Positions 2,476 through 49,022 of a DNA stretch of 64,000 nt are shown one piece after another (position 1 is the first letter of the stretch; each line of letters starts with the position of its first letter). Below the pieces are notes generated by a model. That model did not search any database. It worked only from the letters and a program-made list of their open reading frames with translations, and was not told the DNA's origin. The position numbers and the translations under genes are program-made. The DNA is from an uncultured Candidatus Saccharibacteria bacterium (lineage in GTDB: Bacteria > Patescibacteriota > Minisyncoccia > 2-02-FULL-40-12 > GWA2-44-9): contig CAYUJB010000001.1 in NCBI GenBank assembly GCA_964444955.1, positions 1,816-65,815 on the forward strand, read 5' to 3'.

Positions 2476-2489
2476 CGATGAACACGTAA

Positions 2490-13015: not shown

Positions 13016-14398
13016 CTAGTGTTCGAATGAATCATAAATGCGCTGACGAATCATAGTAAGCTCATTTTTGAGGGGCTCATCGACAGCCTCTTCTCGCCGG
13101 ATTTTTTCACACGCGTGAATAACCGTAGAGTGATCGCGTCCCCCAAGCTTCTGACCGATTTCAGGAAATGAGAGCTTAATTTCTTCGCGGAGGAGATACA
13201 TAGCAATTTGCCGTGGCTTCACTACTTCTTTTTTACGGCTGCGCTTCGTGAGGTCAGCGGCTGGGATATTAAAGAAATCAGCGACTGTTTTAAGAATAAC
13301 CTGCGGAGATGTTTTCCGGTACGGAACGGCAAGGTATGCGTTGAGGATGTTTTTAACCTCCTTCGTGTCCGGGATACGATTATAGACTTGTGATATCGCA
13401 ATTACACGATTGAGCGCTCCCTCGAGCTCACGAACATTTTTTTGAATATGGGTAGCAATATAGGACAACACGTCGTCGTTGAGTGCACAGCCCTTTTCCT
13501 GACTTTTTGTCTTCAAGATCGCGAGCCGCGTTTCATAATCAGGCATATTAATCTCGGCGAGCATCCCCCCTTCAAGGCGGGACTGGAGTCGCTCGGTGAT
13601 TGCCGGGATCGCTTTGGGTGGCCGATCCGACGTGCATACCACCTGTTTGTTGCGGTTGTGGAGTTCATTGAAGATAGTGAAAACGATCTCCTGCGTCTTG
13701 TCTTTGCCCGCGATGTACTGGATATCGTCGATGATAAGGAGATCAAGTTTTGAGTACTGAGTCTTCACATCTTCTGCGGTGCGGTTCTTGATGGATTCGA
13801 CGATAGTTGCGGTGAGTTTTTCCCCCGTCGTGTAGAGCACTTTCTTATCCGACCACTGTTGGAGCACCTGGTTGCCGATAGATTGGATGAGATGTGTCTT
13901 CCCAAGCCCCACTCCCCCATACACAAAGAGGGGGTTATAGTTTTTCCCAGGGCTACTCGCGACCGCCTGGGAACATGCAAAGGTAAATTCATTAGAGCCA
14001 CCAACAATAAAGGTATCAAACGAGTATTTTTTATTGAGGTGAGTTACCTTATCAACGTCCTGACTCTGGTCATATAAGACTTGTTCTTGAAATTCCTTTT
14101 CACTTATTATTTTTGAGATATCCTGGCGCGTTGGTTCTAGTTTTGGTTGTCCGACGATATACTTCACTTCACGTATCTCGTTGGAGAGCTTGCGGATTGA
14201 GGTGAGGATTTGGCGATTGTATTTACTTTCGAGCCACTCTTTCACAAATCCATTCGGAACACTTACCGTTACGGAGTTTTGATCTCGCGTGACGACGTTG
14301 GTGTTTTTAAACCACGTCGTGAAATGGGCGCGAGAAAGTGAAAGTTCCATTTCTCCTAAAACTGTTTTCCAAATATCGTCAGGGGTAACAGAGGTCAT
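13016..14398 (-). CDS. dnaA: chromosomal replication initiator DnaA
   Basis: Walker A GGVGLGKTHL, sensor motifs, and a C-terminal DnaA-box-binding HTH (VIHACEKI). Start set to ATG 14398 (MTSVTPDDIWKTVLGEM). The ORF-track start at 14575 adds 59 unconserved residues. Confidence 0.9.
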   Translation of the reverse strand: MTSVTPDDIWKTVLGEMELSLSRAHFTTWFKNTNVVTRDQNSVTVSVPNGFVKEWLESKYNRQILTSIRKLSNEIREVKYIVGQPKLEPTRQDISKIISEKEFQEQVLYDQSQDVDKVTHLNKKYSFDTFIVGGSNEFTFACSQAVASSPGKNYNPLFVYGGVGLGKTHLIQSIGNQVLQQWSDKKVLYTTGEKLTATIVESIKNRTAEDVKTQYSKLDLLIIDDIQYIAGKDKTQEIVFTIFNELHNRNKQVVCTSDRPPKAIPAITERLQSRLEGGMLAEINMPDYETRLAILKTKSQEKGCALNDDVLSYIATHIQKNVRELEGALNRVIAISQVYNRIPDTKEVKNILNAYLAVPYRKTSPQVILKTVADFFNIPAADLTKRSRKKEVVKPRQIAMYLLREEIKLSFPEIGQKLGGRDHSTVIHACEKIRREEAVDEPLKNELTMIRQRIYDSFEH

Positions 14399-14586
14399 TG
14401 ATGGAGGGGTGTGCACGTGTCGCCAGTATACAGTCCTGTGAAACTCTCTCAAGCGAGCCAACATCACGAATACGTTGATAGAGTGTTTATAACAGGTGGA
14501 AAACTGTGGGTAAATATTGACTCGCACCATCAAACATAGTAGACTGCTCAGTGAAGCGTCGAAGAACGCACACATAAAAAGAACGT

Positions 14587-14724
14587 ATGAAAATTACACG
14601 ATTCAGACCAAAGAAGGTGAAGCGGAGCCGCAAACATGGGTTTCTCTCTCGCATGGTGACAAAGTCGGGACGAAAAGTCGTCGCTCGTCGCAGAGCAAAG
14701 GGACGAACTCGCCTCTCTGTATAG
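14587..14724 (+). CDS. rpmH: 50S ribosomal protein L34
   Basis: 45 aa, [45 protein letters not shown]. Below the ORF-track size cutoff; found by reading the sequence. Confidence 0.85.
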
Positions 14725-14776
14725 TCAACACCGCCCCGAAACGGGGCGGTGTTCTGTGCGCGCCCTCAAGAACCAT

Positions 14777-15124
14777 ATGGCACTCACCAAAAAACTTCGT
14801 CTCAAAGATGCAAAAAGTATTTCTCGTGTATTCCGCGAGACGCGCCCCCGTCACGAGGCTGGTCTTTCACTGCGCGCCTCCGACAGCAAGAATACACCGA
14901 CTGTTTTTGCCGTACTCGTCCCAACCAGTGTTGCCGCGCGCGCTCTAGCTCGTAATGCGCTGCGCCGGAAGGTCACCGAAGCTTTACGTCGCGTCTTACG
15001 CGCGCATGATGTTATTGTGGGAAAGAAGGTTGTTCTTACCGTTCGGAGCGTCCCTCCTATCGCACGCGATCTTGAGAAGTCGCTCGTGCTGCTGTTGAAT
15101 AAATCTGCTATCCTACAAAAGTGA
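14777..15124 (+). CDS. rnpA: RNase P protein component
   Basis: Basic 115-aa protein directly after rpmH (MALTKKLRLKDAKSISRVFRETRP...). The rpmH-rnpA-yidD-yidC-jag order is conserved. Confidence 0.7.
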   Translation: MALTKKLRLKDAKSISRVFRETRPRHEAGLSLRASDSKNTPTVFAVLVPTSVAARALARNALRRKVTEALRRVLRAHDVIVGKKVVLTVRSVPPIARDLEKSLVLLLNKSAILQK

Positions 15125-15351
15125 AACTCCTACTTCTCAAAATTATTCGCGCCTATCAGGATCTCACGCGTGCCGGTATTAGCACTCCGTTTTTTCTGGG
15201 GGCATACTCGGGATGCCGATCGTGGCCAACATGTTCTGAGTTCGCGTATGAGCAGATTACCACCCAAGGCGTCGTGGTAGGCGTCATGCACGCAACCAAG
15301 CGTGTACTTCGCTGCCACTCCTTTTCAGTAGCAACTACACACCACTCATGA
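15121..15351 (+). CDS. yidD: membrane protein insertion efficiency factor YidD
   Basis: 76 aa starting at a GTG. Has the conserved Cys motif CRSWPTCSEFAYE. Confidence 0.75.
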   Translation: MKLLLLKIIRAYQDLTRAGISTPFFLGAYSGCRSWPTCSEFAYEQITTQGVVVGVMHATKRVLRCHSFSVATTHHS

Positions 15352-16046
15352 GTTCTCTTTTCTCCCTCTTCATTTATAAGCCAATACTCAACCTCACCGT
15401 GGTGTTATATGCCACGATCGGGTTTCATGATCTCGGTATAGCCATTATTGCGATGACGATTCTGGTGCGCGCAGCACTTCTCCCGCTGTCTATCAGAACA
15501 GCTCGCTCGCAAAAAGCGATGGCGGAACTTGCGCCGCATATTGAGAAACTCAAAGAAACACATAAAGGAAACACCACTGCTCAGTCAGAGGCGGTGATGG
15601 CGCTGTATCGTGAGAAGGGCGTCAGTCCCCTCGCGGGTTGTTTACCACTTCTCATCCAGCTCCCCATTCTTATTGGCGTATATCAAGTCTTCTTAAAAAT
15701 ATTCCGCCCTGAAACGCTCAACCTTCTCTATAGTTTTATTCCACACCCGGGTGAGATTTCTCATATTATGTTGGGACTCCTTGATATCAGCGCCCCTAGT
15801 CCGGTGCTTGCAGTGATCGCTGGCGCAGCACAATTTTTCCAAGCGCGCGCGGCTATGGCGCAGCAGGCGGCATCGCCGCAGGCTGCTGCAATAGGAAAAC
15901 AAATGATGTACATGCTCCCGGTGATGATTGTGGTCATCAGTTGGAGCTTGCCTGCCGGCCTCGCACTCTACTGGATTACCACATCGCTGTGGTCGATCGG
16001 AGAGCAGTTGTATTTGCGCCGATCTTCGGGCATACTGGCGAAATGA
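15348..16046 (+). CDS. yidC: membrane protein insertase YidC (short Oxa1-type)
   Basis: 232 aa, five TM helices, conserved amphipathic region and a C-terminal basic tail. Start overlaps the yidD stop as ATGA. Confidence 0.8.
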   Translation: MSSLFSLFIYKPILNLTVVLYATIGFHDLGIAIIAMTILVRAALLPLSIRTARSQKAMAELAPHIEKLKETHKGNTTAQSEAVMALYREKGVSPLAGCLPLLIQLPILIGVYQVFLKIFRPETLNLLYSFIPHPGEISHIMLGLLDISAPSPVLAVIAGAAQFFQARAAMAQQAASPQAAAIGKQMMYMLPVMIVVISWSLPAGLALYWITTSLWSIGEQLYLRRSSGILAK

Positions 16047-16501
16047 GCCAGCAGGATACTGCCACTATCGAAGAATTTATTCGGCAAGCAACACAGTATA
16101 TGCAAATCCCCTGTGATATCACGGTGTCTCGTGAAATCACAGGTGCCATGACTGTTGCACTACAGACCAACGAAGATGGCCGTCTCTTAATTGGCAAAAA
16201 TGGACAAAACCTCAAGGCGCTCGAGCATATTGTGCGGCTCGTTTCGATACGTCAAAATCCTGAGCACCACCCCGTGCTTATTGATGTAAATAATTATCGC
16301 GCAGAACAGAAACAGCAGCTCGTCGAGATGATCCGTGCCACGGCAGAGCGCGTGCAACAAACGCAACGCTCAGAGGCGCTTGAACCGATGACATCGTACC
16401 AGCGACGTGTGGTGCACACTGAACTTGCTGCATATAGTGGACTCGCCACAGAGAGTGTGGGACAGGATCCCCATCGCCGCGTCGTCATCAAACCACTCTA
16501 G
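16043..16501 (+). CDS. jag: Jag/SpoIIIJ-associated RNA-binding protein (KH + R3H domains)
   Basis: Start at ATG 16043, overlapping the yidC stop. Has a KH-like IGKNGQNLKALEHIVRL and a C-terminal R3H region YQRRVVHTELA. Confidence 0.7.
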   Translation: MSQQDTATIEEFIRQATQYMQIPCDITVSREITGAMTVALQTNEDGRLLIGKNGQNLKALEHIVRLVSIRQNPEHHPVLIDVNNYRAEQKQQLVEMIRATAERVQQTQRSEALEPMTSYQRRVVHTELAAYSGLATESVGQDPHRRVVIKPL

Positions 16502-16507
16502 AGCAGA

Positions 16508-17650
16508 CTAGTGCAATGGGAGTGCGTAGAGTCTGCTATCAAACATATTCGTGAAAACGAAATAGTCTCCTGACGAAGACATAAGTGGCGCGGTGACTCC
16601 TAGGAGTGTTCCTTGGACGCCCGTATAATTTCTCGTCCGTTCTCCACTCGTAAAATCGAGTGTTTCTATATGATCAACTGTTGCAGTGCGATCGGCCGGC
16701 ACATCTCGCGTGAGGGTGTTTTGCATCGGCACACCACACGTAATAGACATACTGTCAGTTGCCCACGCGCACTTCGCGGCGCTTGTCTCTATCGCAAGAG
16801 GGGTGCTCTCCCCGGATGAAATCCTGTAGTGCCAAAGGGAGATTCCCGTTTCTGGGGTAAAGTACGATATAAGTGCCTGCGTTCCATCGGGAGACCAAGT
16901 GGTTTCGAGATTTTCGCGATTTGTCAGAATGGTAGTTATCTTCCCTCGTTGATCGACGAGCGAGAGATCCCGACCTGGTCGATCGGGGCGCTGGGTCAGC
17001 AGCGCGAGCGTCGAGTCGTCGATCCACTGCACCACGGCACTCTCGGTGCGAGTAGCGAGTATGGTGGCGCCGTTCTCTCCGCTTGAATCTGCAATTCTCA
17101 ACACTGAACCGTCATCACTTGGAGTGAAATAGGCGATACTTTTTCCGTTGGGTGAAGCGGTGGCTCCGGTGAACTCGCTACTCATCCGTTCTGCTGTCGG
17201 TCGCGTATAATTCCGATGATACCACTGTGTCCCCTTCGGTGTCTGAACAGAATAGAGTGACTGCTGTGCTTGGGGGATCCAGAGCGCACCTTGGAAGCCG
17301 AGAATCTTCTCAGATGAAACGCTTGTTGTTTTTTGCGTACGTACGTTCACGGAAAATGCCTTCCCTGTTCCCTCTTCGAAGTAACGGATCTCGTCAGATG
17401 ATATACCGAGTGCAGCGACTCGTATTTTATTCTCACTTACAGCGCGTGGTTGCGTTGTCACGTGGGGTACGATAGTTGGTGATGGTGTTGCGAGCGTATC
17501 GGCAATGGTAGCTGTGGTTGCACCGCCGCGATACAACAGCGCCGATCCCATCACTACGCACCCCAGCAGCGCCACAAAGGTTCCCGCCTGGAGTAGGCGA
17601 AGGTTGGTGGAGTGGCGAGGTATGAAGTTGAGGTTGTTAGCTTTGCGCAT
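16508..17650 (-). CDS. TolB-like beta-propeller protein with an N-terminal membrane anchor
   Basis: PD40/WD40-like repeats (SPNGKSIAYFTPSDDG, SPDGTQALISYF) after an N-terminal TM helix. Last gene of the T4SS-like operon. Confidence 0.5.
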   Translation of the reverse strand: MRKANNLNFIPRHSTNLRLLQAGTFVALLGCVVMGSALLYRGGATTATIADTLATPSPTIVPHVTTQPRAVSENKIRVAALGISSDEIRYFEEGTGKAFSVNVRTQKTTSVSSEKILGFQGALWIPQAQQSLYSVQTPKGTQWYHRNYTRPTAERMSSEFTGATASPNGKSIAYFTPSDDGSVLRIADSSGENGATILATRTESAVVQWIDDSTLALLTQRPDRPGRDLSLVDQRGKITTILTNRENLETTWSPDGTQALISYFTPETGISLWHYRISSGESTPLAIETSAAKCAWATDSMSITCGVPMQNTLTRDVPADRTATVDHIETLDFTSGERTRNYTGVQGTLLGVTAPLMSSSGDYFVFTNMFDSRLYALPLH

Positions 17651-18551
17651 ACGACTGAGAAATTACAGCGAGCCGCGTTTTATAGAGCGAATCGGTGAGG
17701 CCAACAACTTCTTGTTTTCCGGTGGAGTAGCTTTGCAGTACTCCTTGCGCCTCACGCCAATCTGCTCGGTGTGATATGTAGGTCGCAAAAGCACCAATTG
17801 TCCACCAGGGCATAATATTCCATAAAGGAATTGATTCACTAATACGAGTGAAGATTGGGTTCCGTAGCCATTTTAACCACTTTGACTCATTGACGAAGAT
17901 TGCCGCCTTTCCTGAATATTTAATGAGATTTGTTTTTTTTGCGAGAGCTCCAGCTTTTACCAGTAAGGCGCCGCCCTGCTCAGCAAGTTGAGGGAATTGA
18001 TTTTTCGCGTTGCCTATCCATGTCAGGAGGTTGTTGTATTCTTGACGCACTATCTGCACGTCACGTGAGAGATCTTTCCCCCTCTCTTGGAGTTCGTCGC
18101 GATGTTCCTGAACCTGTTTTGCGTATTTGCCTAGTAAAACGCGCGAGCCGATCCACATGACAATAGTCACAAATAGAGTCGCAGCAATCCCGAGTATAAT
18201 ACCAATGCCAAAAACCTCCGTTAGTGCAAAGCCACCTGAAATGAGAGCGGCACCAGCGGTGTCGGCGACAACGCATAGAAGTCCGAAAAGGAAATATCGG
18301 GTCTTTGAGGGTTCTTTTATTTTTTTAGCACTTTCCACGTTAACATCGGATAACTCACGCGTATGTTTATTGCGCGTTTTTGCGTATGCCTGCGTAACCG
18401 TTTGGTGGGCTGATTGCAGAGCTTGTCGGAGTGCACTGACACGAGCAACGCCATCAGCGTGGAGTTGCTGAAGTGGAATTCGTTGCACCACAGCGCGCGC
18501 AACTGGTGGTGGCGCTATATCGCGGACGGTTGTGGATGTCGTTGCGGGCAT
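17637..18551 (-). CDS. two-TM membrane protein with a coiled-coil domain (T4SS-like operon component, function unknown)
   Basis: 304 aa. Two adjacent TM helices (YFLFGLLCVVADTAGAALISGGF, FGIGIILGIAATLFVTIVMWIGSRVLL) followed by a charged helical domain. Coding regions overlap both neighbours. Confidence 0.4.
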   Translation of the reverse strand: MPATTSTTVRDIAPPPVARAVVQRIPLQQLHADGVARVSALRQALQSAHQTVTQAYAKTRNKHTRELSDVNVESAKKIKEPSKTRYFLFGLLCVVADTAGAALISGGFALTEVFGIGIILGIAATLFVTIVMWIGSRVLLGKYAKQVQEHRDELQERGKDLSRDVQIVRQEYNNLLTWIGNAKNQFPQLAEQGGALLVKAGALAKKTNLIKYSGKAAIFVNESKWLKWLRNPIFTRISESIPLWNIMPWWTIGAFATYISHRADWREAQGVLQSYSTGKQEVVGLTDSLYKTRLAVISQSYAQS

Positions 18552-18554
18552 GGG

Positions 18555-20309
18555 TTACGCTGTTGTTTGTCCTATTTTTGCCCACTCTTGCTTTGCCTTT
18601 TCGATCTCCAGAAGCTGCTTAGGGTCAGAGGTAATGATTTGATCTTCTGCGTATGCCGCCATCACACGTAGACCGACGTGGTTTGAGCCAAGGAAGAACA
18701 AACCGAACCCAACGCGTGCCTCGAGGAGGTAGTACTTTTCTGAGTCGGTGAGATTGAACGTCTGCTGGATGATGTCGATCGCTGCCGTTGATTGCTTCAT
18801 GAGCATTTGCATCGAGGAGTTGGTCACAATCGCCTTTCCCTGCGGGCTCGACATAAAATCAGGAATGTCTTGGCTGATGGTGGAGAGGCCGCAGTAATAT
18901 TTGCGGCCACGCTTGGCGATGTTGAACAAAAATTCAGCGCCCGTCTGGTATTTCATGAGCACCCACGCCTCATCCACCACGAGGAGTCGTTTTTTGCGCT
19001 CTCGACGTACTTGCGCCCAGATGTAGTTGAGCACCGAATACATCGCGATGGGGCGTAGCTCGTCTTCCAGATCACGCAAACCAAAGACGATGAGTTGGTT
19101 ATCGAGCGGAATATTGGTCGGATGGTTGAGAAATCCCGCAAAAGTTCCGGTGGTGAATTTCTCAAGTCGTACCGCCATACGCTCTGCACCCGTGATGCCC
19201 GAGAGGATGTTCTGGAGATCGCTCAGGACTGGCGGAGGAAGTTTTGAGAAGTCAGCATCGGGCACGATATCTTTAATCGCGTACGTTTGGATGAGCGCCT
19301 GGTCCAAAAGCGACTCTTCCTCGGGCGTGAGTCCCCCACCCATGATGAGCTTCACGAGGCCGGCCAGGTTGAGCACGTGGGAGTTGAATGCATCCGCCCA
19401 CGTCTCTTCATCTTTGGGCGTGGGGAGATCAAACGGATTGATGTGCTGGTCAGAATTGATGGAGATTTTGATCGATGTTCCTCCGACGGTATCGGAGAGG
19501 AAGCTATATTCGTTTTCGGGGTCGATGACCATGATTTGTGTGCCCAGGTACAGGTAGCGCAAGAGTTCGAGTTTGACGGTGTAGCTTTTACCGGCACCAG
19601 ATTTTGCGAACATGACTGAATTAGCGTTCTCCAGTGAGAATCGGTCAAAGATGACCATACTGTTGTTGGTGGTGTTGATGCCGTAGAGAACACCCGAATT
19701 CGAGGTAAGGTCACTGGAGACAAACGGGAACATCGATGCGATGGGTTGCGTGTTCAGTGGCGTCAGCGATAAGATGCGATCGTCAGCGAGTGGTGAGGTG
19801 GTGAGAAACCCTTCCAGCATACGAAACGATGTCTGCTTGGGGATCACGAGGAGTCCGTCGAGCATGCTTTTGATCTTGCCTTCGGTTTCATCGAGGTCGT
19901 GGAGTGAGTTTTCGTAGAGCGTGACGTAGAGACCAACTTGAAAGAATCGCTCGGTCCCCTGCTGAAGCTCGTCACGGAGTGCCTCCAAGTCTCCCACAGC
20001 CGTCTGGAGCACCGGATTACGTACCTTACCCGCTGCCTCTTCTTCCATGAGCTGTGCCTGTACCCTGGTGAGCTGGTCGCGCAGCTGCTTGAGCACCTCC
20101 GATGTCTCTTGGGGTGAGACAAAGATGGCAATATCGAGCACTTTGTCGAGGTTTACAATCGGTGAGAGCCAGTTCGCGTTCAGAAAGCGCGGATAGGTTG
20201 CAATAAAGATAGTGCGTGCAAACTTATCCCCTACTTGGATGTAGTTGGAAGATATTTTGATTGCTGATGGTGCCAGTGTTGTGGATGCTCCGACAGGGGT
20301 TGGTTCCAT
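18555..20309 (-). CDS. VirB4/TraC/TrbE-family type IV secretion ATPase (C-terminal ATPase module)
   Basis: Walker A AKSGAGKSYT, Walker B RLLVVDEAWVLM and an arginine finger region, in a DUF87/AAA-like domain organisation. Confidence 0.75.
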   Translation of the reverse strand: MEPTPVGASTTLAPSAIKISSNYIQVGDKFARTIFIATYPRFLNANWLSPIVNLDKVLDIAIFVSPQETSEVLKQLRDQLTRVQAQLMEEEAAGKVRNPVLQTAVGDLEALRDELQQGTERFFQVGLYVTLYENSLHDLDETEGKIKSMLDGLLVIPKQTSFRMLEGFLTTSPLADDRILSLTPLNTQPIASMFPFVSSDLTSNSGVLYGINTTNNSMVIFDRFSLENANSVMFAKSGAGKSYTVKLELLRYLYLGTQIMVIDPENEYSFLSDTVGGTSIKISINSDQHINPFDLPTPKDEETWADAFNSHVLNLAGLVKLIMGGGLTPEEESLLDQALIQTYAIKDIVPDADFSKLPPPVLSDLQNILSGITGAERMAVRLEKFTTGTFAGFLNHPTNIPLDNQLIVFGLRDLEDELRPIAMYSVLNYIWAQVRRERKKRLLVVDEAWVLMKYQTGAEFLFNIAKRGRKYYCGLSTISQDIPDFMSSPQGKAIVTNSSMQMLMKQSTAAIDIIQQTFNLTDSEKYYLLEARVGFGLFFLGSNHVGLRVMAAYAEDQIITSDPKQLLEIEKAKQEWAKIGQTTA

Positions 20310-20315
20310 GGGTGG

Positions 20316-20954
20316 TTAGGCGTTAGGTTGAGTAGGAGCTGGTACTACGGGGTTGTAGACATCATTGAACAGCTGCACGAGTTCTTCCTGGCCGAGCATC
20401 GCTCCGCGAAGTCCCATGCCTGATAGGCCACCGATAATGAGATCGGCGCGCTGCTGGAGCTGTGTCTTGTAACTGGCAAGCTGCTCTGGCGGAATGCCAT
20501 GTGCGGTTGGCGCTTTCTTGAACATATCCTTAATACCCGCAAAAAATCCTTTGCTCTCTTTGGTCGCCACGACCATGAGTGGGAGGACGACATAAAAATT
20601 CTTCTGCATGATGTTGGCAAGATCGGAAAGCTCACCCACAAACCGCATGTATTCGGTCGCCTGAATCTTGAGCAGGTCGTTGGTGAGCTGGTCAGCTGCG
20701 GTGCGCACAGATGCCAGGTACGTGGAGATGTCGTAGCGGCGTGAATGCGCAACCATCTGGATGGGAAAGTCGATGGAATTAAGAAACGCCCCAAATTGCT
20801 GGAGTATCCCCTGCTGTTCGTCGGATGAGCGCAGCTCAAAATTAATTGCCGATACCTTCACAACCGCGCGAAGCGAGCCGTCTTTGAGAAGGAGTACACC
20901 TTCGGTGAGTTCCTGAATTTGAATCAGGTCTGCGGTTGATGGTTCATTTGCCAT
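20316..20954 (-). CDS. hypothetical protein, possibly the separated N-terminal domain of VirB4
   Basis: 212 aa soluble protein immediately upstream of the VirB4-like ATPase on the same strand. Combined length 212+584 matches full-length VirB4 proteins. This is positional inference only. Confidence 0.35.
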   Translation of the reverse strand: MANEPSTADLIQIQELTEGVLLLKDGSLRAVVKVSAINFELRSSDEQQGILQQFGAFLNSIDFPIQMVAHSRRYDISTYLASVRTAADQLTNDLLKIQATEYMRFVGELSDLANIMQKNFYVVLPLMVVATKESKGFFAGIKDMFKKAPTAHGIPPEQLASYKTQLQQRADLIIGGLSGMGLRGAMLGQEELVQLFNDVYNPVVPAPTQPNA

Positions 20955-21294
20955 TGCCAGGAAGGTTAAATTGATTGTCGTTGGGTTTTATTTTGTAGAT
21001 TGCACGCTTCGCGCCGAGACTATACGCCAACATGTAGGCAAGATAATTCAACAATGGTTGCCCATCTACCCTCACGAAAGCGAGCGAACCAAAGAAGCTC
21101 AAGATGACAATTGCAGCGACGAAAAAAAAGATTCCGTTGAGCACAATCCATGCCACAGCCGTCATACTCACGCCACCAGCCACAAACAAAAACTGCATGA
21201 GTGTGAGCGGCCCCACAAGTTTTGTCTCCGTCTGAATAAATTGTGGCACTTGAAATCTCATCCCGTTAGAAGCGACAGGGCAACATGCTACCAC
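20944..21294 (-). CDS. small two-TM membrane protein, VirB3-like by position
   Basis: 116 aa with two hydrophobic helices (LMQFLFVAGGVSMTAVAWIVL, IFFFVAAIVILSFFGSLAF). Size and position upstream of VirB4 match VirB3/TrbD-type subunits. Confidence 0.35.
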   Translation of the reverse strand: MVACCPVASNGMRFQVPQFIQTETKLVGPLTLMQFLFVAGGVSMTAVAWIVLNGIFFFVAAIVILSFFGSLAFVRVDGQPLLNYLAYMLAYSLGAKRAIYKIKPNDNQFNLPGNGK

Positions 21295-21363
21295 CTAGTG
21301 GCAGAAAATGCGCTTGTCCTTTTGTTATTATGACATACATTAGTTGTTCGCTTCTAACGGGAC

Positions 21364-21834
21364 TCATGCGGTTGGTTTGTTTCGTAAGTCTATTGTATTA
21401 CGCGGGAGGGTCGGTGCGCTAGGAGGAAGTGGTGGGATCGGGGTCGGAGCTTGTTGCTGCGCTTCAACTTCTTCATCATCAATAAATATTTCAGTCATAT
21501 TCAAGATTTCTTGCATCAGTTGGGCGATAGATGATTCAGGGATGCCAATGCCCGTTAAGAGTTGCGCAATAGATTCTCGTAGTGACGGATCTTCAAGGGC
21601 GATCATCCCGATAAGCTTTGAGATCGCGAGCGCGTGAGTCTCAGGCAAGAGTCCGCTCGAAATCCAACTCCGAATAGTATTGAGTGTTCCTTCTCCAACG
21701 AGAATATCCTGGACATGGTCGTCAAGCGACAGAAATACCGACGAAAGAATGTATTGCTCGTCTTCATCCCTCCCTAATATCAAAGCCATGTAGGGCGACT
21801 GAATCGCTGAAGTTTGTTCGCTTTGATCCATCAT
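21364..21834 (-). CDS. acidic cytoplasmic hypothetical protein
   Basis: 156 aa, acidic, with a Pro-rich C-terminus (APTPIPPLPPSAPTLP). Coding region overlaps the upstream gene. Confidence 0.35.
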   Translation of the reverse strand: MMDQSEQTSAIQSPYMALILGRDEDEQYILSSVFLSLDDHVQDILVGEGTLNTIRSWISSGLLPETHALAISKLIGMIALEDPSLRESIAQLLTGIGIPESSIAQLMQEILNMTEIFIDDEEVEAQQQAPTPIPPLPPSAPTLPRNTIDLRNKPTA

Positions 21835-24542
21835 GATTGTGTTGTTTCCTTCCTTAATTTCTGCAAGTCTCCATTCATGTCACTGCGACGACTTTCAAGA
21901 TCTTCGATCCATGCATCTAATCGTTTCTTCATCTTCTTATCGGTAGTTTTGTCTTGCTTTTTTCTGAGCCGTTTGATTCCTTGATTAAATTTCCGATCTT
22001 TTGCCTCTAACTCTTTGATATTTTTTCTTGCCGCTGAGCTTTTGATTTTTATGTTCGCGTACTCGTCTAAAATGCGTAGTTGCTGTTCAGGACTAGATAC
22101 ATTTCGGAGTATCTTCCCGAACTTTTCAGGCTTTTTAAGAGATTCTTTTAGCTTCTTTTGCAATTCATCGGGCATTTTTTCTTTTGTGGTGCCAACGGGC
22201 AGTGCTGCGTTCCTCTTCGCTAGCTCGTCTTCAAAATCGAGGACATCGAGATCGGAAAGAGAATCTGCACGATCTGACATTGCTTCGGCGGTAGTAACTT
22301 TCTTTCCATTTCTATCAGTTATAAGACCCATTCCGGCCATGAGTTCAATAGAAGCTACCTTGCTTCTGCCGTTTTTGGATGTTGCTTCAAGAAATGCTCG
22401 CTGATCCTCCGGGCTTTCCTTCATGAGTTCTGTAAGTTTGGTGAGTTGCGATTGATCAAATTTTGCTTTATTGCCAACTTCACCGCGCATAGCGGCATCC
22501 AAAAATTTGCGCACATCTTCTGGCTTGCCCGCACTTTTTGCTGCAGCGGCAAACTTATCAAATTCGAAATCTCCACTAGTGGGATCGAGATAAGTATCCC
22601 AAGCATTAGCCGAGCCCTTTTGAAGTTGCTCGGTAAGGCGCTTTTGGAATTCTTTGCGTGCGACAGGCGATACATCTCCATATTTCTTCAGAAGTAGTTG
22701 CCGTTCTGGTTCCGAGAGCTTGCCCTGCTTCATAAGTATCTCTCCTGCGGCGAGTGCGGCATCTCGATTACCGCTATTGAATTGCGAGCGCAAGTACGCT
22801 TCCTTCTTATCTTTATCAGTGATCTTGTTTGCCGCCGCCTCGATCATCCCCTTCTGCGCCTCAATACGCTTCTGCGCTAGCTTATCAACTTCGGCATCAG
22901 CACCACGAACACCATACTGCATCTTTTTATAGGCAACCGCTTCTTCCTGTGAACGAAATAGATTTGGCGCTCGTCCCTTGATGTTAGCCCCCATGTCTCC
23001 GAATGTCTGCGCCCCGCTGGCCTTAAGAGCTTCGTATGATGAAGTCATGCCGAGTTTATTCGCTACCGCATTAAATCCAAAGTTCGCCTTCTCCCCTACG
23101 CCAAGAGAGTCCGCGGCACCCCCGACATATTTCTTCAGGGAGTCGCTGAGAGAGAACGCATATTTCCATGCAGCGCCAGCTCCGCCGATAAATATCGAAC
23201 CAGCGAGCATGTAAAAAAGTCCAATACCGAAAACTCCAGCAAATGCCCCGGCATCTTTGAGGCCCGAAAGGAGCGAGTTCTGCTGACTCAAAACAAACAT
23301 TCCGATATAGATTACAAAGAGATAGAGTGGCGAAAAAATATTCCAACCAACCATGTTTCCGAACCACTCTTTATGCACCTTCGAACCGGGTACGCCGATA
23401 CTAAAGAATGCGAGGGCGGATAGTGATAGATAGAACCAGGTTACCGGAATTCGCACCACCATAACCACAACAGCGGTAACAAAAGAAAATGCGAGCACAC
23501 CCAAGAAGAAGTTGTTGATGAATAAGCTCAAGATCTTGAGCGCTTGCTCCGATGGCGAGGCGTGCCCTGCTTCTGTGGGCGGCGGCAATGATTGGGCGCT
23601 AGCCCAGGCTCCTTTTGCTGCTCCACTTAATACGCCAGTTCCAAATACGTAGCCCTCCGCGGCACCCGCTACGCCCCCTTTTGCGTTGTTTATCCAGTAA
23701 TTCCCCGCATCTTTTAACGTATCCCACCAACCAGGAGACGTACTCAGCCGCTGTATTTCCTTGTCGATAGCGGCGCTCGTTATAGGTGCTTGTACGCGCG
23801 CAGCTCCTGCGCTACACGCTGACATATTCTGACCAGATGCAAGGCAGTCTTCAAAATATTTCTTTGGCGCGCCAACATATCCTCTCTTTGCTACAAGTTG
23901 CGCAGGATCGAGTTGGTCATCAGGCACACTTGATAGCGGTGCCGCCACTAATGAAAGTCCATTACTACCTGCTGCGACCTGAAGCAGTTGTCCCTGCACC
24001 AAAACGGTGTCAGCGATGTCGATACTCTTACCATCGAGGCCCTTTCCCGTCATAAGACCTGCAACGAGCGAACTCGCTTGGTTTCCAGCCCAGATAATAA
24101 TCTGACCGATGGGAAGACTGAAATTAATAAGGAGAGCGGCGAGGATGACTCCTTTGAGCGCGCTGCTGTAGTAGTATGCTTTTGCCCCTTTTGGTGCGAT
24201 CGAATTGAAAATGGTGCTAAATGCAATAAGGATAAAGAAAATAATAAAGAGCGAGTTGCATATATCGCGAAATACTTTCCAGACGTTATAGACGGCGGCT
24301 CCTCCGTAATTAATCTCGCTTCCAATAATCCAATTTATTAGTTGTCCTCCCCAGACAATGATTTGAACGATTATGTCATGAACGGTCTCTAGGAGCCCGA
24401 CAAAAAGACCAAGAATATCCGATGCTATCCCGTCGCCGGCTGCGTGCGCAGGTGTCGGAACCAGCACGACGAGCGTCGTAATGATAAGGAGCGCAACGAT
24501 TGTAGAGCGATAGGATTTCATCATTGAACACCTTCGGTACAT
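21831..24542 (-). CDS. large polytopic membrane protein with a Lys/Glu-rich coiled-coil tail (VirB6/TrbL-like candidate)
   Basis: 903 aa. Signal-like N-terminus, two blocks of multiple TM helices, and a C-terminal roughly 350-aa charged helical region (KKMKKRLDAWIEDLESRRSDMNGDLQKLRKE). An alternative start at 24524 is possible. Confidence 0.5.
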   Translation of the reverse strand: MYRRCSMMKSYRSTIVALLIITTLVVLVPTPAHAAGDGIASDILGLFVGLLETVHDIIVQIIVWGGQLINWIIGSEINYGGAAVYNVWKVFRDICNSLFIIFFILIAFSTIFNSIAPKGAKAYYYSSALKGVILAALLINFSLPIGQIIIWAGNQASSLVAGLMTGKGLDGKSIDIADTVLVQGQLLQVAAGSNGLSLVAAPLSSVPDDQLDPAQLVAKRGYVGAPKKYFEDCLASGQNMSACSAGAARVQAPITSAAIDKEIQRLSTSPGWWDTLKDAGNYWINNAKGGVAGAAEGYVFGTGVLSGAAKGAWASAQSLPPPTEAGHASPSEQALKILSLFINNFFLGVLAFSFVTAVVVMVVRIPVTWFYLSLSALAFFSIGVPGSKVHKEWFGNMVGWNIFSPLYLFVIYIGMFVLSQQNSLLSGLKDAGAFAGVFGIGLFYMLAGSIFIGGAGAAWKYAFSLSDSLKKYVGGAADSLGVGEKANFGFNAVANKLGMTSSYEALKASGAQTFGDMGANIKGRAPNLFRSQEEAVAYKKMQYGVRGADAEVDKLAQKRIEAQKGMIEAAANKITDKDKKEAYLRSQFNSGNRDAALAAGEILMKQGKLSEPERQLLLKKYGDVSPVARKEFQKRLTEQLQKGSANAWDTYLDPTSGDFEFDKFAAAAKSAGKPEDVRKFLDAAMRGEVGNKAKFDQSQLTKLTELMKESPEDQRAFLEATSKNGRSKVASIELMAGMGLITDRNGKKVTTAEAMSDRADSLSDLDVLDFEDELAKRNAALPVGTTKEKMPDELQKKLKESLKKPEKFGKILRNVSSPEQQLRILDEYANIKIKSSAARKNIKELEAKDRKFNQGIKRLRKKQDKTTDKKMKKRLDAWIEDLESRRSDMNGDLQKLRKETTQS

Positions 24543-26143
24543 GCTGCGACGGGTGATCCTCCATCTGTACGGACAAACCCATCACCCGTGATGACATCAA
24601 AGGAGGTAGAAATGCCTGAATCACCCAGCACGATTTCATCATCTTGAGCAGGATGTAGATGACATACTCCTGCGCCGATGATGTCGCAGATGGCCTGCAG
24701 CACCAGTCGGAAGTCTACCCCAGGAGCGATCTTGCTAGTTCCGCTCTCAAACAGAGCAGGTTGATTTTGCATGACCGATGCGATCACTTGAGATATCACC
24801 CCCGAGGCAACAGCCCGCGCGGTGGGATCATCTTTCACACAGGTGCAGCGGGCGTCACCGCCAGTGCATGCTGGATCGTTGGGCGATGTCTCTCCTGGCG
24901 CCGGCGTCGGTGTGGGTTCTGGCGTGAAGTTGGCTGGGTCTCGCTCGGGGCCGAGCTCGAGCTTGAATGGTAGTGGAGCGTTGGAGAGGTCGAGAATACG
25001 TGTTTGGATGCGCGCCGCGATATCATCCATGAGTCCGCCATCACCGATGGCTACGGTCATGCGCGAGTAGTAGCCCTCGAGGTCGGACTTGATGATATCG
25101 CGCACGGCGCCTGGGACTTGCTTCATGACACCATCGTCAATACATTTTCCGTCGGGGTCTTTTGAGCACTCACCGCGAGTTCCTGAAAATCCCCCACCCG
25201 CAAGAGCCTCTGTGTAAGCTTCTGCAACGCGCGTGGATTTGAGCGTTTCAAATTCAGCGAGCGCCATAGCCTCAAAGTCGCGCCAGTTATTTTGGGGCTG
25301 CTCCATCAAGGCCAAAAACATGTAGCCACTATTTTTCCCCTCCTGATCAGGATCGGTACTCGTCACATCGAAACTCTCGGGAAGCGTGCATTTTGCGCGT
25401 AACTCGAAGGGCGCCCGCTCATCAGTTCGAAATCCAGCGATAGTAATATTAGGCGGACTGTCGCGATATGATTTCGGCACACCGAGATCGTTGAGCACTT
25501 TGTCTCGAAAGGCGGGGCAGATATCAGTGTTAGCCAAGAGCGCCCACCATTGTCGCTGCGCCAATTCTGCTGGGCGTACATTCAGGAAACGAGACCAGTC
25601 GGTTGCTGCGGCAATTCCCCCATCCAACCCCTGCGTTTGGAGCATAGTCGTCGCAGTTTCTGTGACGATGTTCTGCATGACGGTCGTGGTGCAGTTCACC
25701 AAGAAGTTTGATTTGAGGCGCGCTTTAAATTCAGTTTTCAGCTCTGCCTTTGCATCGGAAATTGGTACTTGCACGCATTCAATGGCAAGCGCTTTCCCAA
25801 CAAGAGGGATTTGTTTAATCAGCCCATTGAGCTTGCACATCGCATTTCCAACGGCAATATTCTTCGTCATCTGAAGGAGATCGTTGATCGTGTCCTGTGC
25901 CCAGTTTTTTACCTGCTGCGCTAGTTGGCCATTAAAAAGATTGAGCAGGTTGCCGCGGCACTCGGAGTATTTTGATCCATTAATCCCCTGCTCTTCAGAG
26001 ATTACTTGTACATCTACACTCGCTGGTCGGCGAATACCTAAGTCATTGAGGCTGATAGCTCGACTCACCGTGCCCACGAGAAGCAAGCCCGTGAAGACGA
26101 GTTCAGCGACGAGTAGTGCGGTTGTTAGACGTGGGAGTTTCAT
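24521..26143 (-). CDS. secreted Cys-rich protein (T4SS-like operon component)
   Basis: 540 aa. N-terminal hydrophobic signal/anchor (LLVAELVFTGLLLVGTV), many cysteines, and a PT-rich linker (PEPTPTPAPGETSP). Confidence 0.45.
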   Translation of the reverse strand: MKLPRLTTALLVAELVFTGLLLVGTVSRAISLNDLGIRRPASVDVQVISEEQGINGSKYSECRGNLLNLFNGQLAQQVKNWAQDTINDLLQMTKNIAVGNAMCKLNGLIKQIPLVGKALAIECVQVPISDAKAELKTEFKARLKSNFLVNCTTTVMQNIVTETATTMLQTQGLDGGIAAATDWSRFLNVRPAELAQRQWWALLANTDICPAFRDKVLNDLGVPKSYRDSPPNITIAGFRTDERAPFELRAKCTLPESFDVTSTDPDQEGKNSGYMFLALMEQPQNNWRDFEAMALAEFETLKSTRVAEAYTEALAGGGFSGTRGECSKDPDGKCIDDGVMKQVPGAVRDIIKSDLEGYYSRMTVAIGDGGLMDDIAARIQTRILDLSNAPLPFKLELGPERDPANFTPEPTPTPAPGETSPNDPACTGGDARCTCVKDDPTARAVASGVISQVIASVMQNQPALFESGTSKIAPGVDFRLVLQAICDIIGAGVCHLHPAQDDEIVLGDSGISTSFDVITGDGFVRTDGGSPVAACTEGVQ

Positions 26144-27060
26144 TTGCTATTGAGTGTTGTAGCCATGCGGTGTTGGAACGCAAGCGTGAGGTCGAGAGGC
26201 GTTTCGGAGGTGAGCGTGTTGAGCACCTGAAGAGATATCACTCCCATAAGTGGGTCACTGGCAATATTTTTTACCGCGCGATAGCGCTGCTGCGTTCCAC
26301 GGAGATACAAAATGAGAGATCGATGGAAATCAACCATGGGTGTCGGTACTCGAATGCTCTTGAGTGTGCGGATACGATCTTCGAACGCTACCGCTTCCGA
26401 ATCGGCAGACGCTACGAACGCTTGGAAGACTGATGGTTGTGTAGTGTTGAGTTTTGGGAGATCGGCCAGCGATGCGTTCCCCGCTGTTGCAAGAAAAGCG
26501 CGGTAGTTAGCACTAATCTCAGTAAACATAGGCGCGAGGATGCTTGCCATCTTGAAGCTGTACGCCATCAAGTTGTCTCTGCTGGTGGACGCGACAGCAA
26601 TCGAGTCTAATTCTGAGGCGACATTGGTGGTGTACTGATTGAATATTTCATCGACGAGGTCATCGACGGAGGTGTTGTAGGTTGGATTTTTCGGATCAAG
26701 GTTGCCGGCAGCCACGCCACCCATCAAGAGTGTTGACGCGCGTTGGGTGAGGTTGCGCTTGTTGTCGAGGAAATCATTCGGGCCGGCTTTGGCGGGATCG
26801 TGGCCGGAGAGCACCTCTTCCCCATCCTTATACCCATCACCATCAGTGTCGGGATTTTTGAAGTCGGTATTCCAGTAGGTCTCGTCGTAGTCGCACAGAC
26901 CGTCACCATCTTGATCGTTGCAGTTCGCTGGCGTGGGGGTGGGTTGCGTGATGCTATCGGAGATGGTGGCAGTGGTGAGTGTTGAGCGGAGAGCGTACCA
27001 AAAAGACAAGCCGGCACCCACGGCCAAAACAGCGAGCAGGAATTTAAGTCTTCCACTCAT
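26140..27060 (-). CDS. secreted protein with thrombospondin-type-3-like Ca-binding Asp repeats
   Basis: Start corrected to ATG 27060 (MSGRLKFLLAVLAVGAGLSF), with a GAGG 7 nt upstream. The ORF-track start at 27081 is a GTG lying inside the promoter. Repeats include DQDGDGLCDYDE and NPDTDGDGYKDGEE. Confidence 0.45.
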   Translation of the reverse strand: MSGRLKFLLAVLAVGAGLSFWYALRSTLTTATISDSITQPTPTPANCNDQDGDGLCDYDETYWNTDFKNPDTDGDGYKDGEEVLSGHDPAKAGPNDFLDNKRNLTQRASTLLMGGVAAGNLDPKNPTYNTSVDDLVDEIFNQYTTNVASELDSIAVASTSRDNLMAYSFKMASILAPMFTEISANYRAFLATAGNASLADLPKLNTTQPSVFQAFVASADSEAVAFEDRIRTLKSIRVPTPMVDFHRSLILYLRGTQQRYRAVKNIASDPLMGVISLQVLNTLTSETPLDLTLAFQHRMATTLNSK

Positions 27061-27071
27061 AGATTGCCTCA

Positions 27072-27080
27072 ATTCTACCA
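27072..27080 (-). promoter_or_regulatory. extended -10 promoter element (TGgTAGAAT) for the T4SS-like operon
   Basis: Minus-strand sequence gtggtagaat lies 12 nt upstream of the ATG at 27060. The same TGgTAGAAT element precedes the tRNA-Ser pair at 38991-39000. Confidence 0.4.
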
Positions 27081-27118
27081 CGTTTGAGGCGCAGAAAATC
27101 TACACTTCGTGTGTATAT

Positions 27119-27886
27119 CTAATTGAGCGAGGCGGCGAGTCTTCGCCACTCCTCTACCGAGAGCTCCTGGGGACGCACCGTGGGGGTAATTCCAGCGCGC
27201 GCGAGCGTCTCGGCGGCTATGGTTGCAGTCAGTTGCTTACGTTTTTGACCAAATGCTGGCTTAGCGAGTGCAAGTATCTGTTTGTTTCTTTCTCGCTCCT
27301 CACCCCTTACCGCTACAAGCTTCAGTGACACTACCGCCGAATCCACGTCGGGCATAGGGCGGAAGCTACCCGGCGATACCCGCATAACGATGGAGGGTGT
27401 GGCATAGAGTTGCACTGAGAGGGCTAGTAGATTCATATCCGGCGGCGTGGCGAGCATGCGCTGAGCAACTTCATATTGCACCATGAGTATTGCGAGCGAT
27501 GGCGATGGCCACGACTCGAGCATGAGGCGGATGAGGTGTGAGGTCAGGTAATACGGAATGTTAGCGACGACTTTGTACGCAGAAGGGGTAAGCGTGAAGG
27601 GGTAAGCGTGAAGATCAAGAATATCCCCTTCGATAATCGAGACATTAGGTGTTTGCGCGAATTCGTCACGGAGTGGCTCGATGAGGCGCCTATCTTTTTC
27701 GATGGCGATCACCGTAGCGCCCGTTGCCGCAAGGCGCCTCGTCAGCGCTCCTGTCCCCGGCCCCACCTCAACGATAGTATCTGTAGGTGAAATGTCTGCA
27801 GCTACAATAATACGATCGAGCACGCCCTCGTTGACGAGGAAATTTTGTCCCAATGATTTCTTCGCGTGTACTTTGATGTCAGTCAT
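27119..27886 (-). CDS. rsmA: 16S rRNA (adenine1518/1519-N6)-dimethyltransferase
   Basis: 255 aa. SAM-binding motif VVEVGPGTGALT and a KsgA/Dim1 family pattern. Confidence 0.85.
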   Translation of the reverse strand: MTDIKVHAKKSLGQNFLVNEGVLDRIIVAADISPTDTIVEVGPGTGALTRRLAATGATVIAIEKDRRLIEPLRDEFAQTPNVSIIEGDILDLHAYPFTLTPSAYKVVANIPYYLTSHLIRLMLESWPSPSLAILMVQYEVAQRMLATPPDMNLLALSVQLYATPSIVMRVSPGSFRPMPDVDSAVVSLKLVAVRGEERERNKQILALAKPAFGQKRKQLTATIAAETLARAGITPTVRPQELSVEEWRRLAASLN

Positions 27887-29843: not shown

Positions 29844-29930
29844 ACTGGCGCTGAGTATAGCAGAAAAACGCTTATAACAAAGAAAAAAAGACGAGCATTG
29901 TTGCTCGTCTTGTCGAGGGGGCCGCCTCCC

Positions 29931-30212
29931 TCACCGCCCGCTCACCTTTTCAAGCGTCTGGCGGATCTCGTGCGGATCCTGTGTGGTGCACACCCGAAAG
30001 TTCATCATCATGATTCCGTCATGATAAGCGGGGCCAGCCCACACGAACACGCACGCCGGCTTCTCCATGCTACTCAGATAGGCCTGGACTGCCCTGAACT
30101 GCTTCCAGTTGAGACTGAGCTCGATCATAGTGTTTTTCACGACGGCTCCTTTTTCTCGAGTTGCTGCTGTTGCGTTGTTGGCGCATCCTGAACCGTCAGG
30201 AGTATGGCCCAC
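29931..30212 (-). CDS. small hypothetical ORF (uncertain)
   Basis: 93 aa ORF with no recognisable motif. It borders the ORF-free structured region and could be non-coding. Confidence 0.2.
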   Translation of the reverse strand: MGHTPDGSGCANNATAATREKGAVVKNTMIELSLNWKQFRAVQAYLSSMEKPACVFVWAGPAYHDGIMMMNFRVCTTQDPHEIRQTLEKVSGR

Positions 30213-30683
30213 CCCGCGATTTTATCGAGTAGTGCTACGGTCTCTTTGTCGCCGGTATGCTTTTTGAGTAGCTCCTGAAGGCTCCGCTCAATAATACTCC
30301 AGGCTTCTTTCTGCGTTTCCACGATGCTTCTACTAAATAATTATGAGTTGTAAAGGTGAATCTCTACAAGGTCTCGAGATAGTCTCAAGAGCTTGAGTGA
30401 GTGGGCGATAATTGGTCACAAGGTATCGCCCCTATCCTCGGGTCTGCGTGCGGGATTACTCCCCCACCAGTTGCCAGAACAACTCCTCCGCCTCCTTCTC
30501 CTTCCCTTCTCTGAAGAGTCGGTTGAAGACTGCATCGAAGTTGCGTCTCGCCTCTTCCGGGAGCGAGACCTGGGGCTCCCGGACGACACGTCCGGTAGTC
30601 CAGCTGTACGCACCAACACGCTCGCCGTCAATCTTGACTAGCTCCATGACACCCTCCTTTAGGGTTGCGGGCGAAATGCCCGA

Positions 30684-30737
30684 TTTCTGTTTCGGCCTGC
30701 TGGCCTCATCAGTCGGAGCGAATACTCCGAGACAGAG
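30684..30737. repeat. 54-nt structured element, copy A
   Basis: ttctgtttcggcctgCtggcctcatcagtcggagcgaatactccgagacagaga. Folds as an outer 10-bp stem (ucuguuucgg/ccgagacaga with one G-U pair) enclosing the hairpins GGCC-ugcu-GGCC and CGGAG-cgaaua-CUCCG. Confidence 0.5.
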
Positions 30738-31099
30738 AGGAAGTTTAAAGAGATTCCTCAGCTCGTATTTTCAGGTTTCCGTTGTAGCGGATTCCCGACT
30801 AACATTGCGATGTGGGTATAACGAACCCTCCATCCAACGCTCTTGCATTAGCTTGACTGCAAGAGAGGCGTGCCGAGGGAAAAGCGTCCCCCGACTTTAG
30901 GCCCTTATAAACTAAACAGAAGTTTATAGCCTACCCGTTCGGATTATGAATGACGTATCACTCATAATATGGGCTCTCCTTCGACGGGAATACCCGATGA
31001 TACGTGCCCCAAGCTGGCACGGGATGGAGTCTCTACAAAGACTCCGGTTGATGCGCGTTTCCCTCGCGGCTGGTGTTCGACACCAGCCGCCATCAACTC

Positions 31100-31153
31100 T
31101 TCTGTTTCGGCCTGTTGGCCTCATCAGTCGGAGCGAATACTCCGAGACAGAGA
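31100..31153. repeat. 54-nt structured element, copy B (53/54 identical to copy A)
   Basis: Direct repeat of copy A, 416 bp downstream, with one C/T difference. Both lie inside the 1.85 kb ORF-free region. Confidence 0.5.
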
Positions 31154-38971: not shown

Positions 38972-39000
38972 TTGATAAAAGCCGCCAAAAGTGGTAGAAT
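38972..39000 (+). promoter_or_regulatory. promoter for the tRNA-Ser pair (-35 TTGATA, 17-bp spacer, extended -10 TGgTAGAAT)
   Basis: TTGATA at 38972-38977 and TAGAAT at 38995-39000 preceded by TGG. The first tRNA starts at 39012. Confidence 0.45.
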
Positions 39001-43636: not shown

Positions 43637-43669
43637 AAAACCACCCACTCTACGGGGTGGTTTTGTTTT
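43637..43669 (+). terminator. Rho-independent terminator (AAAACCACCC-actctacg-GGGTGGTTTT plus gtttt)
   Basis: 10-bp stem followed by a T-run. A TATACT -10-like hexamer at 43672-43677 follows directly, ahead of the sortase gene. Confidence 0.5.
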
Positions 43670-49021: not shown

Positions 49022-49022
49022 T

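Follow-up and report, generated by a model that had tools for sequence, protein, structure and literature searches.

What kind of machine is encoded by nine consecutive minus-strand genes that include the motor of a type IV secretion system (T4SS) and are accompanied by neither a relaxase nor a coupling protein? Such a block occupies positions 16508-27060 of the 64-kb stretch of contig CAYUJB010000001.1 analysed here (hereafter the window, meaning this whole stretch). Patescibacteria account for a substantial part of the diversity of bacteria and grow attached to other microbial cells; the T4SS is one of a small number of machines whose essentiality for such an epibiotic life has been demonstrated, in this case in Saccharibacteria. 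An earlier interpretation made without database searches (the sequence-only reading), in which the block extended to 27081, had proposed a minimal candidate phyla radiation (CPR)-type T4SS lacking relaxase and coupling protein. This proposal fits the organism names of the homologues as well as three published accounts, namely Quinonero-Coronel et al. 2025 (PMC12102498), Wang et al. 2023 (PMC10633639) and a 2025 review (PMC12857230). The locus is very probably a vertically inherited chromosomal T4SS of Paceibacteria (Parcubacteria, CPR/Patescibacteria) and a member of the Patescibacteria-specific clade derived from monoderm conjugation machines of the mating-pair formation (MPF) class MPF-FATA. 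Given its match to the three accounts, it is a typical member of an already described system and not a new kind of system, and it provides a clean nine-gene definition of the Paceibacteria version.

The assignment starts with the motor protein. Gene 7 (18555-20309, 584 amino acids (aa)) contains both motifs for which it had been called a VirB4-family ATPase, AKSGAGKSYT as Walker A (residues 235-244) and LLVVDEAWVLM as Walker B (residues 441-451). The protein scored 350.2 bits with the NCBIfam model NF045971 conju_CD1110 (cutoff 325), also matched the TraC-F-type (TIGR02746) and VirB4_CagE (TIGR00929) models, and carries the Pfam domains P-loop_TraG and AAA_10 (PF19044, PF12846). It aligned with residues 228-772 of PrgJ from plasmid pCF10 at 25% identity (E 8e-38). 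The score against PrgJ, which belongs to MPF-FATA, was 136 bits, compared with 38 bits against Orf16 of Tn916 (MPF-FA), and no similarity to the coupling protein PcfC was found. When tested as an FtsK/HerA-like ATPase, the protein proved to be a VirB4 instead, with no FtsK match in the NCBIfam search. Among the 120 homologues listed of 8000 scored, lengths ranged from 564 to 591 aa and identities from 67 to 100%, and all named homologues were labelled as Patescibacteria lineages.

We compared the locus with 80 related loci that were obtained from a scan of species-representative genomes and in which the nine gene families were called by iterated profile searches. Thirty-two of these, selected for a match to ksgA and to jag on either side, are referred to as two-flank loci. 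The comparison was informative for gene 6 (20316-20954, 212 aa), which the sequence-only reading had listed as a 212-aa protein accompanying VirB4. Both proteins are present, and the smaller one can now be described as a TrsD-like, detached VirB4 N-terminal domain. It matched only the N-terminal 100-230 positions of the NCBIfam VirB4 models (E 4e-8) and reached E 7e-7 with TrsD, below the TrsD cutoff of 200, while the TraC-like domain PF26593 is precomputed on a public protein identical to it. Together, genes 6 and 7 add up to 212 + 584 = 796 aa, exactly the length of PrgJ, and both are colinear with PrgJ. Judged from this summed length and colinearity, VirB4 is split here in the same way as in pGO1 (TrsD plus TrsE). 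Gene 6 stops 6 nucleotides (nt) before virB4 and was found as a separate open reading frame (ORF) in 77 of the related loci.

Two membrane proteins complete the core. Gene 5 (20944-21261, 105 aa), previously noted as a VirB3-sized protein with two transmembrane (TM) segments, has two such segments and is a PrgI/VirB3 protein above the Pfam threshold (PF12666 PrgI, 36.8-37.2 bits, cutoff 27); its family was recovered in 76 of the 80 related loci. The start codon is most likely ATG 21261, since the 105-aa version starting there comprises the PrgI domain in full, matching positions 2-90 of the 91 in the profile. Gene 3 (21831-24542) encodes the 903-aa polytopic protein that had been described as VirB6/TrbL-like; we found it to belong to the VirB6/TrbL membrane proteins, in an extended form whose C-terminal domain of ~430 aa is hydrophilic and K/E-rich. 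The VirB-family relationship of the membrane proteins flanking the ATPase, on which the sequence-only reading had staked its case, is thus borne out by PrgI/VirB3 and VirB6. In total, four genes are T4SS core parts, with VirB4 in two genes, VirB3 and VirB6. By its sequence, the operon-like block, headed by an extended -10 promoter of its own, specifies the part of a monoderm T4SS that forms the core at the cytoplasmic membrane.

The closest known plasmid machines are those of the MPF-FATA class (pCF10, pGO1), which share with this locus a CD1110-type VirB4 and the lack of outer-membrane core parts. The order VirB6, VirB3, VirB4 is the one of PrgH-PrgI-PrgJ in pCF10, except that the small gene 4 is inserted here between VirB6 and VirB3. 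In contrast to pCF10, the locus has no relaxase, no PcfC/VirD4, no PrgK-type hydrolase, no detectable PrgL/VirB8-like protein and no LPXTG adhesins. It also differs from the MPF-FATA plasmids in lying off any mobile element and in the size of its VirB6 (903 aa versus 266 aa for PrgH).

Given the conjugative type of its VirB4 (CD1110/PrgJ) and its pCF10-like gene order, the locus could be regarded as an integrated conjugative element, remnant or active, with its relaxase and coupling protein encoded beyond the window. The composition of the window speaks against this. Consistent with the earlier statement that it contains no relaxase, VirD4, VirB11 or pilin, a Pfam search of the 44 ORFs of at least 150 aa that are not nested in a larger annotated gene, plus several smaller ones, detected none of the relaxase, VirD4/TcpA, VirB11 and VirB2 families. 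Within the 64 kb we found neither the combination of a relaxase with a VirD4/TcpA type IV coupling protein nor mobility signatures such as an integrase or a repeat boundary, and the GC content of the block is not distinct from that of its flanks. The sole PF00437 ATPase in the window (3920-5608, plus strand) is a 562-aa protein of the PilB type, not VirB11. This PilB/GspE-type ATPase, with a weak N-terminal MshEN domain, is encoded by a solitary gene whose neighbours are ruvB, a YebC-like gene and ruvC; no further gene related to type IV pili was seen in the window.

The comparison of gene order, which had been proposed as a check on the sequence-only reading, also argues against a mobile origin. 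In all 32 two-flank loci the cluster lies between ksgA and jag/yidC/rnpA/dnaA. The upstream flank consists of uvrD/pcrA and ksgA on the same strand as the operon; on the other side jag, yidC, yidD and rnpA are convergent with the operon and are followed by dnaA and dnaN. All nine families were colinear in 23 of the 32 two-flank loci, and the remaining nine lacked one or two of them in these calls. Across all 80 related loci, each family was recovered in 40-79. Most of the 80 records were named as Patescibacteria or Paceibacteria lineages (Yanofsky-, Giovannoni-, Sung-, Moran-, Niyogi-, Portnoy- and Nealsonbacteria). Some 30 of the 80 were automated records of metagenome-assembled genomes that carried other labels (uncultured Saccharibacteria, Bdellovibrionales and one Gammaproteobacteria), with the same gene order. 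In the more distant relatives, two or three added genes stand between genes 8 and 9.

Sequence divergence gave a similar picture. Compared with the three nearest relatives, VirB4 was 80-90% identical and DnaA 79-95%, so that the identity of the motor tracks that of DnaA across relatives, as vertical descent predicts. Genes 1-4 reached only 22-49% identity and gene 9 only 38-47%, and gene 8 was matched by tblastn in one of the three relatives only, at 60% identity. The fixed position, the housekeeping flanks and a motor as conserved as DnaA argue for vertical inheritance and against a mobile element. Furthermore, transfer of the system between classes is rare (PMC12102498). The fixed housekeeping flanks (ksgA, uvrD, jag, yidC, rnpA and dnaA, in the same order in all two-flank loci) speak against a mobile element, which we reject, and we regard the integrated conjugative element outlined above as extremely unlikely.

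The survey of Quinonero-Coronel et al. (PMC12102498) describes a matching clade of T4SSs. These authors found VirB4 in 2,417 of 3,035 Patescibacteria genomes, with most copies forming one clade within MPF-FATA, and they give 2,407 assemblies for the monophyletic VirB4 clade; TrsD, VirB3 and VirB6 were encoded near virB4, only 109 relaxases were found, and VirB8 was almost confined to the class ABY1. In Paceibacteria, dnaA, dnaN, ksgA, rnpA and rpmH adjoin virB4. Our locus shares with this clade the VirB4 with a separate TrsD-like protein, PrgI/VirB3 and VirB6, the lack of a linked relaxase or coupling protein, the monoderm host, and the chromosomal, origin-proximal position beside dnaA, dnaN, ksgA and rnpA as in Paceibacteria. 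To these common parts the cluster adds five conserved Paceibacteria-specific genes. The set of TSP3-repeat, Cys-rich, acidic, two-TM and TolB-type propeller proteins was not found in the results, discussion or supplements of that study, and its supplementary tables do not mention PD40, TolB or TSP3. A difference also exists to the Saccharibacteria locus, which has a VirB2-like pilin array and a VirB1-type hydrolase, neither of which was recognised in this cluster.

What would such a machine transport? In Southlakia epibionticum, epibiotic growth requires the T4SS genes SEML1_0006-0019, a system that also has no recognisable coupling protein or relaxase (PMC10633639). The essentiality of this system is independent of ComEC (PMC12857230). 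We propose that the VirB4 hexamer would dock on a VirB3/VirB6 platform and power the passage of substrates across the membrane, while the two-TM protein, the anchored propeller and the two secreted proteins could form or decorate a wall-crossing, host-facing part. The machine would then move proteins or other macromolecules between epibiont and host, and not conjugative DNA. By analogy, transfer to or from the host most likely applies here rather than conjugation, considering that no relaxase or coupling protein is linked to the locus and that growth on the host requires the counterpart system in Saccharibacteria in a ComEC-independent manner.

Import of host or environmental DNA, which would supply a cell unable to make nucleotides, has to be weighed at this point. 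VirB4-type ATPases operate without a relaxase in the ComB system of Helicobacter and in the archaeal Ced system of Sulfolobales, and the window likewise contains neither a relaxase nor a coupling protein. The presence of recG, ruvABC-type genes, polA and uvrD in the window would suit such a function, as would comF, recG and radA beside the T4SS in the class ABY1 (PMC12102498). Gene 7 has weak NCBIfam matches to CedB (NF041017) and CedD; however, the 31 bits for CedB are far under the cutoff of 700, those for CedD were 14 bits (cutoff 600), and no other Ced or ComB family was matched in the Pfam/NCBIfam searches of the nine proteins. ComB further needs the diderm parts VirB7, 9 and 10, which are absent here. 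In Saccharibacteria, competence proceeds via type IV pili and ComEC, both of which Southlakia needs for it, and deletion of comEC is non-lethal there whereas the T4SS is essential (PMC12857230). DNA import is therefore an improbable function of the locus.

The five remaining genes (1, 2, 4, 8 and 9) have no VirB assignment and are conserved in colinear order. Gene 1 (26140-27060, 306 aa) and gene 2 (24521-26143, 540 aa) are the two proteins that had been described as secreted and Ca-binding or Cys-rich, and both descriptions hold. The product of gene 1 has an N-terminal signal anchor with a TM segment at residues 5-23, Ca-binding TSP3 repeats (PF18884 TSP3_bac, 33.3 bits, cutoff 25) and a C-terminal domain without assignment. 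Searched against the PDB, its family profile matched Ca-binding repeats only, and the family occurs at the same cluster position in 41 related loci. Gene 2 encodes a secreted or anchored protein of an orphan family with 14 Cys, a Pro/Thr linker and a C-terminal Cys domain, and some of its homologues carry Ig-like and peptidoglycan-binding domains.

These two proteins are central to another explanation, according to which the block would mainly assemble a surface structure (pilus or adhesive fibre) by which the epibiont keeps hold of its host, with the products of genes 1 and 2 exported as building blocks and no cargo passing into the host. VirB4 drives pilus biogenesis in other systems, and VirB2-like pilin arrays are frequent in Patescibacteria clusters and essential in Southlakia (PMC12102498, PMC10633639). 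That genes 1 and 2 are fast-evolving and encode secreted or anchored products, and that gene-2 homologues may contain Ig-like and peptidoglycan-binding domains, would suit fibre subunits. Yet no VirB2-like pilin was detected in the cluster or the window, and the Sec-type N-termini of genes 1 and 2 imply that their export would not need the T4SS. We thus assign the fibre a low probability and retain macromolecule transfer with the host as the function to which the evidence points.

Gene 4 (21364-21834, 156 aa) encodes an acidic protein, as had been claimed (23 D+E versus 7 K+R), which is presumably cytoplasmic because it has no TM segment. It had no match in Pfam or in the PDB profile search, and its family was found in 53 related loci at the same cluster position. 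In gene 8 (17637-18551, 304 aa), the two TM helices reported earlier were predicted in the centre of the protein, at residues 87-105 and 113-131. No significant match was obtained in Pfam, the PDB, pCF10 or Tn916, and the family occurs in 62 related loci, directly after virB4. Profile-profile comparison of genes 4 and 8 with hhalign against all Prg/Pcf proteins of pCF10 and Orf13-17 of Tn916, as well as PDB profile searches, gave at most 13% probability. An identification of gene 8 as VirB8 or PrgL is unsupported by these comparisons, although its position makes it a candidate for a VirB8-like role.

Gene 9 (16508-17650, 380 aa) encodes a membrane-anchored TolB-type (PD40) beta-propeller with an N-terminal TM segment at residues 17-40. 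The propeller had been recognised before, and its family profile matches TolB propellers in the PDB with E values of 1e-19 to 1e-20; PD40 was detected in 27 of 56 family members. The match covers the propeller alone (TolB residues about 225-350). An orthologue of TolB can be rejected, as the NCBIfam TolB model TIGR02800 scored 17.8 bits against a cutoff of 343 and the TolB N-domain is missing. Compared with TolB of the Tol-Pal system, with which it shares the PD40-repeat propeller, the protein has a membrane anchor in place of the TolA-binding N-terminal domain and is encoded in a monoderm without a Pal/TolA/TolQ/TolR context. In 30 of the 32 two-flank loci, gene 9 closes the T4SS block. The suggestion that the propeller and the Ca-binding protein are unusual additions does not hold, since gene 1 likewise occurs in 30 of the 32.

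The five conserved partners are candidates for wall-spanning, host-contact components. It is a serious possibility, if somewhat short of an even chance, that genes 1, 2, 4, 8 and 9 constitute the envelope half of the Paceibacteria T4SS, a hitherto undescribed module spanning the wall and contacting the host, in place of VirB8, VirB1 and the adhesins of Gram-positive systems. If so, the fast divergence of these five (22-49% identity compared with 80-90% for VirB4) would reflect adaptation to particular hosts.

Several points weigh against our interpretation of the locus. Gene 3 is VirB6/TrbL-like on the grounds of transitive homology and a medium-confidence structural model (predicted local distance difference test (pLDDT) 65.5), and the model of gene 2 is of low confidence. 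The link of the five partner genes to the machine consists solely in their conserved order. Neither a VirB8-like nor a VirB1-like component was detected in the cluster; in particular, a VirB8-like bitopic NTF2-fold was found in none of the nine proteins by Pfam, PDB profile search or hhalign against PrgL. Finally, homologues of the VirD4 coupling protein are present in most Patescibacteria genomes, mostly far from virB4 (PMC12102498), and genes for a relaxase, VirB2 pilins or a VirD4-like protein may lie in the genome beyond the 64-kb window.

The block has a compact, operon-like layout. All nine minus-strand ORFs were found where the sequence-only reading had placed them, and its description of the genes as overlapping or abutting applies to all junctions except one. 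Five junctions overlap (by 4, 22, 4, 11 and 14 nt), two are separated by 6 nt and 3 nt, and a single 102-nt spacer lies between genes 4 and 5. For gene 1, the previously assumed start GTG 27081 was replaced by ATG 27060 (306 aa) as most likely, in agreement with the public gene call for the identical contig. The GTG start is disfavoured because it would place the proposed promoter within the gene.

The extended -10-like element TGGTAGAAT reported for this promoter is present on the minus strand at 27072-27080, 11 nt upstream of the gene-1 ATG. Related loci provide comparative support: in at least 10 of 40, the start codon of gene 1 is preceded at 6-12 nt by an element of the TGnTAnAAT type, and several further loci have TATAAT without the TG before gene 1. 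The conserved position of the element before gene 1 lends good comparative support to a putative real promoter with a very short leader. In a motif scan of the window, the pattern TGNTANAAT occurred in 4 copies compared with 4.9 expected, a count no higher than chance. All four copies are intergenic. Three stand 10-12 nt upstream of a gene or tRNA start, one each for gene 1, the gene at 33013 (histidine phosphatase) and tRNA-Ser at 39012; for the fourth, in the gap 53813-54159, we identified no downstream gene. A scan with the generic sigma-70 -35/-10 consensus was uninformative, as it returned fewer promoter-like sites than shuffled sequences and missed the extended -10 element.

On the plus strand, the extended -10 nonamer (TGGTAGAAT or TGATACAAT) occupies 38992-39000, 53948-53956 and 32995-33003. 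The pattern of these sites suggests that very short leaders are common in this genome. Within the gap 53813-54159, a promoter-like segment of ~30 nt is repeated (53925-53956 and 54017-54048), and an unannotated small RNA is possibly encoded near 53960-54150.

The spacer between genes 4 and 5 (21262-21363, minus strand) is predicted to form a stable hairpin, with a minimum free energy of -42 kcal/mol and a z score of -4.5; none of 200 shuffled sequences was equally stable. In its 16-bp closing stem, the bases following the gene-4 stop codon pair with those directly before the gene-5 ATG. The hairpin may couple or limit translation of the VirB3/VirB4 half of the operon. Of 14 relatives folded, 13 showed no comparable structure before gene 5, and the remaining one (L011) has a hairpin of unrelated sequence (z -2.7).

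The chromosomal setting allows the direction of transcription to be related to replication. The minimum of the cumulative GC skew falls at 14-16 kb, beside dnaA, which likely places the operon within about 2 kb of the replication origin. From gene order and GC skew, the likely origin is located near 14.6 kb, flanked by dnaA (minus strand) and rnpA (plus strand), and the operon would be transcribed towards it. The T4SS operon, ksgA and uvrD (within 13016-27886) are all on the minus strand, an arrangement that is kept in related loci. As they lie to the right of the origin, their transcription would run head-on to the rightward replication fork.

In many related loci a gene of 500-550 aa is located between ksgA and gene 1 (L008 at 1800-3290, L011, L017, L021, L022, L026, L028, L029, L031, L032 and L033). 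The L008 gene, the sole one of these that was scanned, encodes an apolipoprotein N-acyltransferase-like protein (CN_hydrolase + LNT_N). Our own window has no Lnt-like gene before gene 1.

Upstream of uvrD, the otherwise densely packed genome contains an ORF-poor stretch of ~2.3 kb (29844-32170), in which the longest ORF has at most 162 aa and no Rfam match reached the gathering score. Two type III hammerhead ribozyme motifs lie on the minus strand within this stretch, at 31099-31153 (46.3 bits, E about 1e-8) and 30684-30738 (44.4 bits, E about 1e-8), both slightly below the Rfam gathering score of 48.5. Both have an intact catalytic core, and the two motifs, spaced 415 nt apart, share 98% identity. 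The 415-nt unit delimited by their predicted cleavage positions (30731-31145) folds to -168.5 kcal/mol (z -7.4 versus shuffles), and its flanks fold somewhat better than shuffled sequences (z -2.3 and -3.5). No further copy of the unit was found in IMG/VR, JGI metagenomes, the related loci or phage records. From its sequence, the pair together with the unit looks like a ribozyme-excised, possibly circular, structured RNA of a CPR chromosome.

Two other features of the window are of interest. At 35486-36226 (minus strand), a 246-aa protein with a homing-endonuclease-associated HNH repeat is encoded next to tRNA-Pro and an ECF-type sigma factor gene. On the plus strand at 43657-50807, genes for three large proteins (684, 705 and 638 aa) come after a sortase gene. 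DUF11 and PKD domains are present in two of the three, and the locus probably encodes a surface structure or fibre anchored by sortase.

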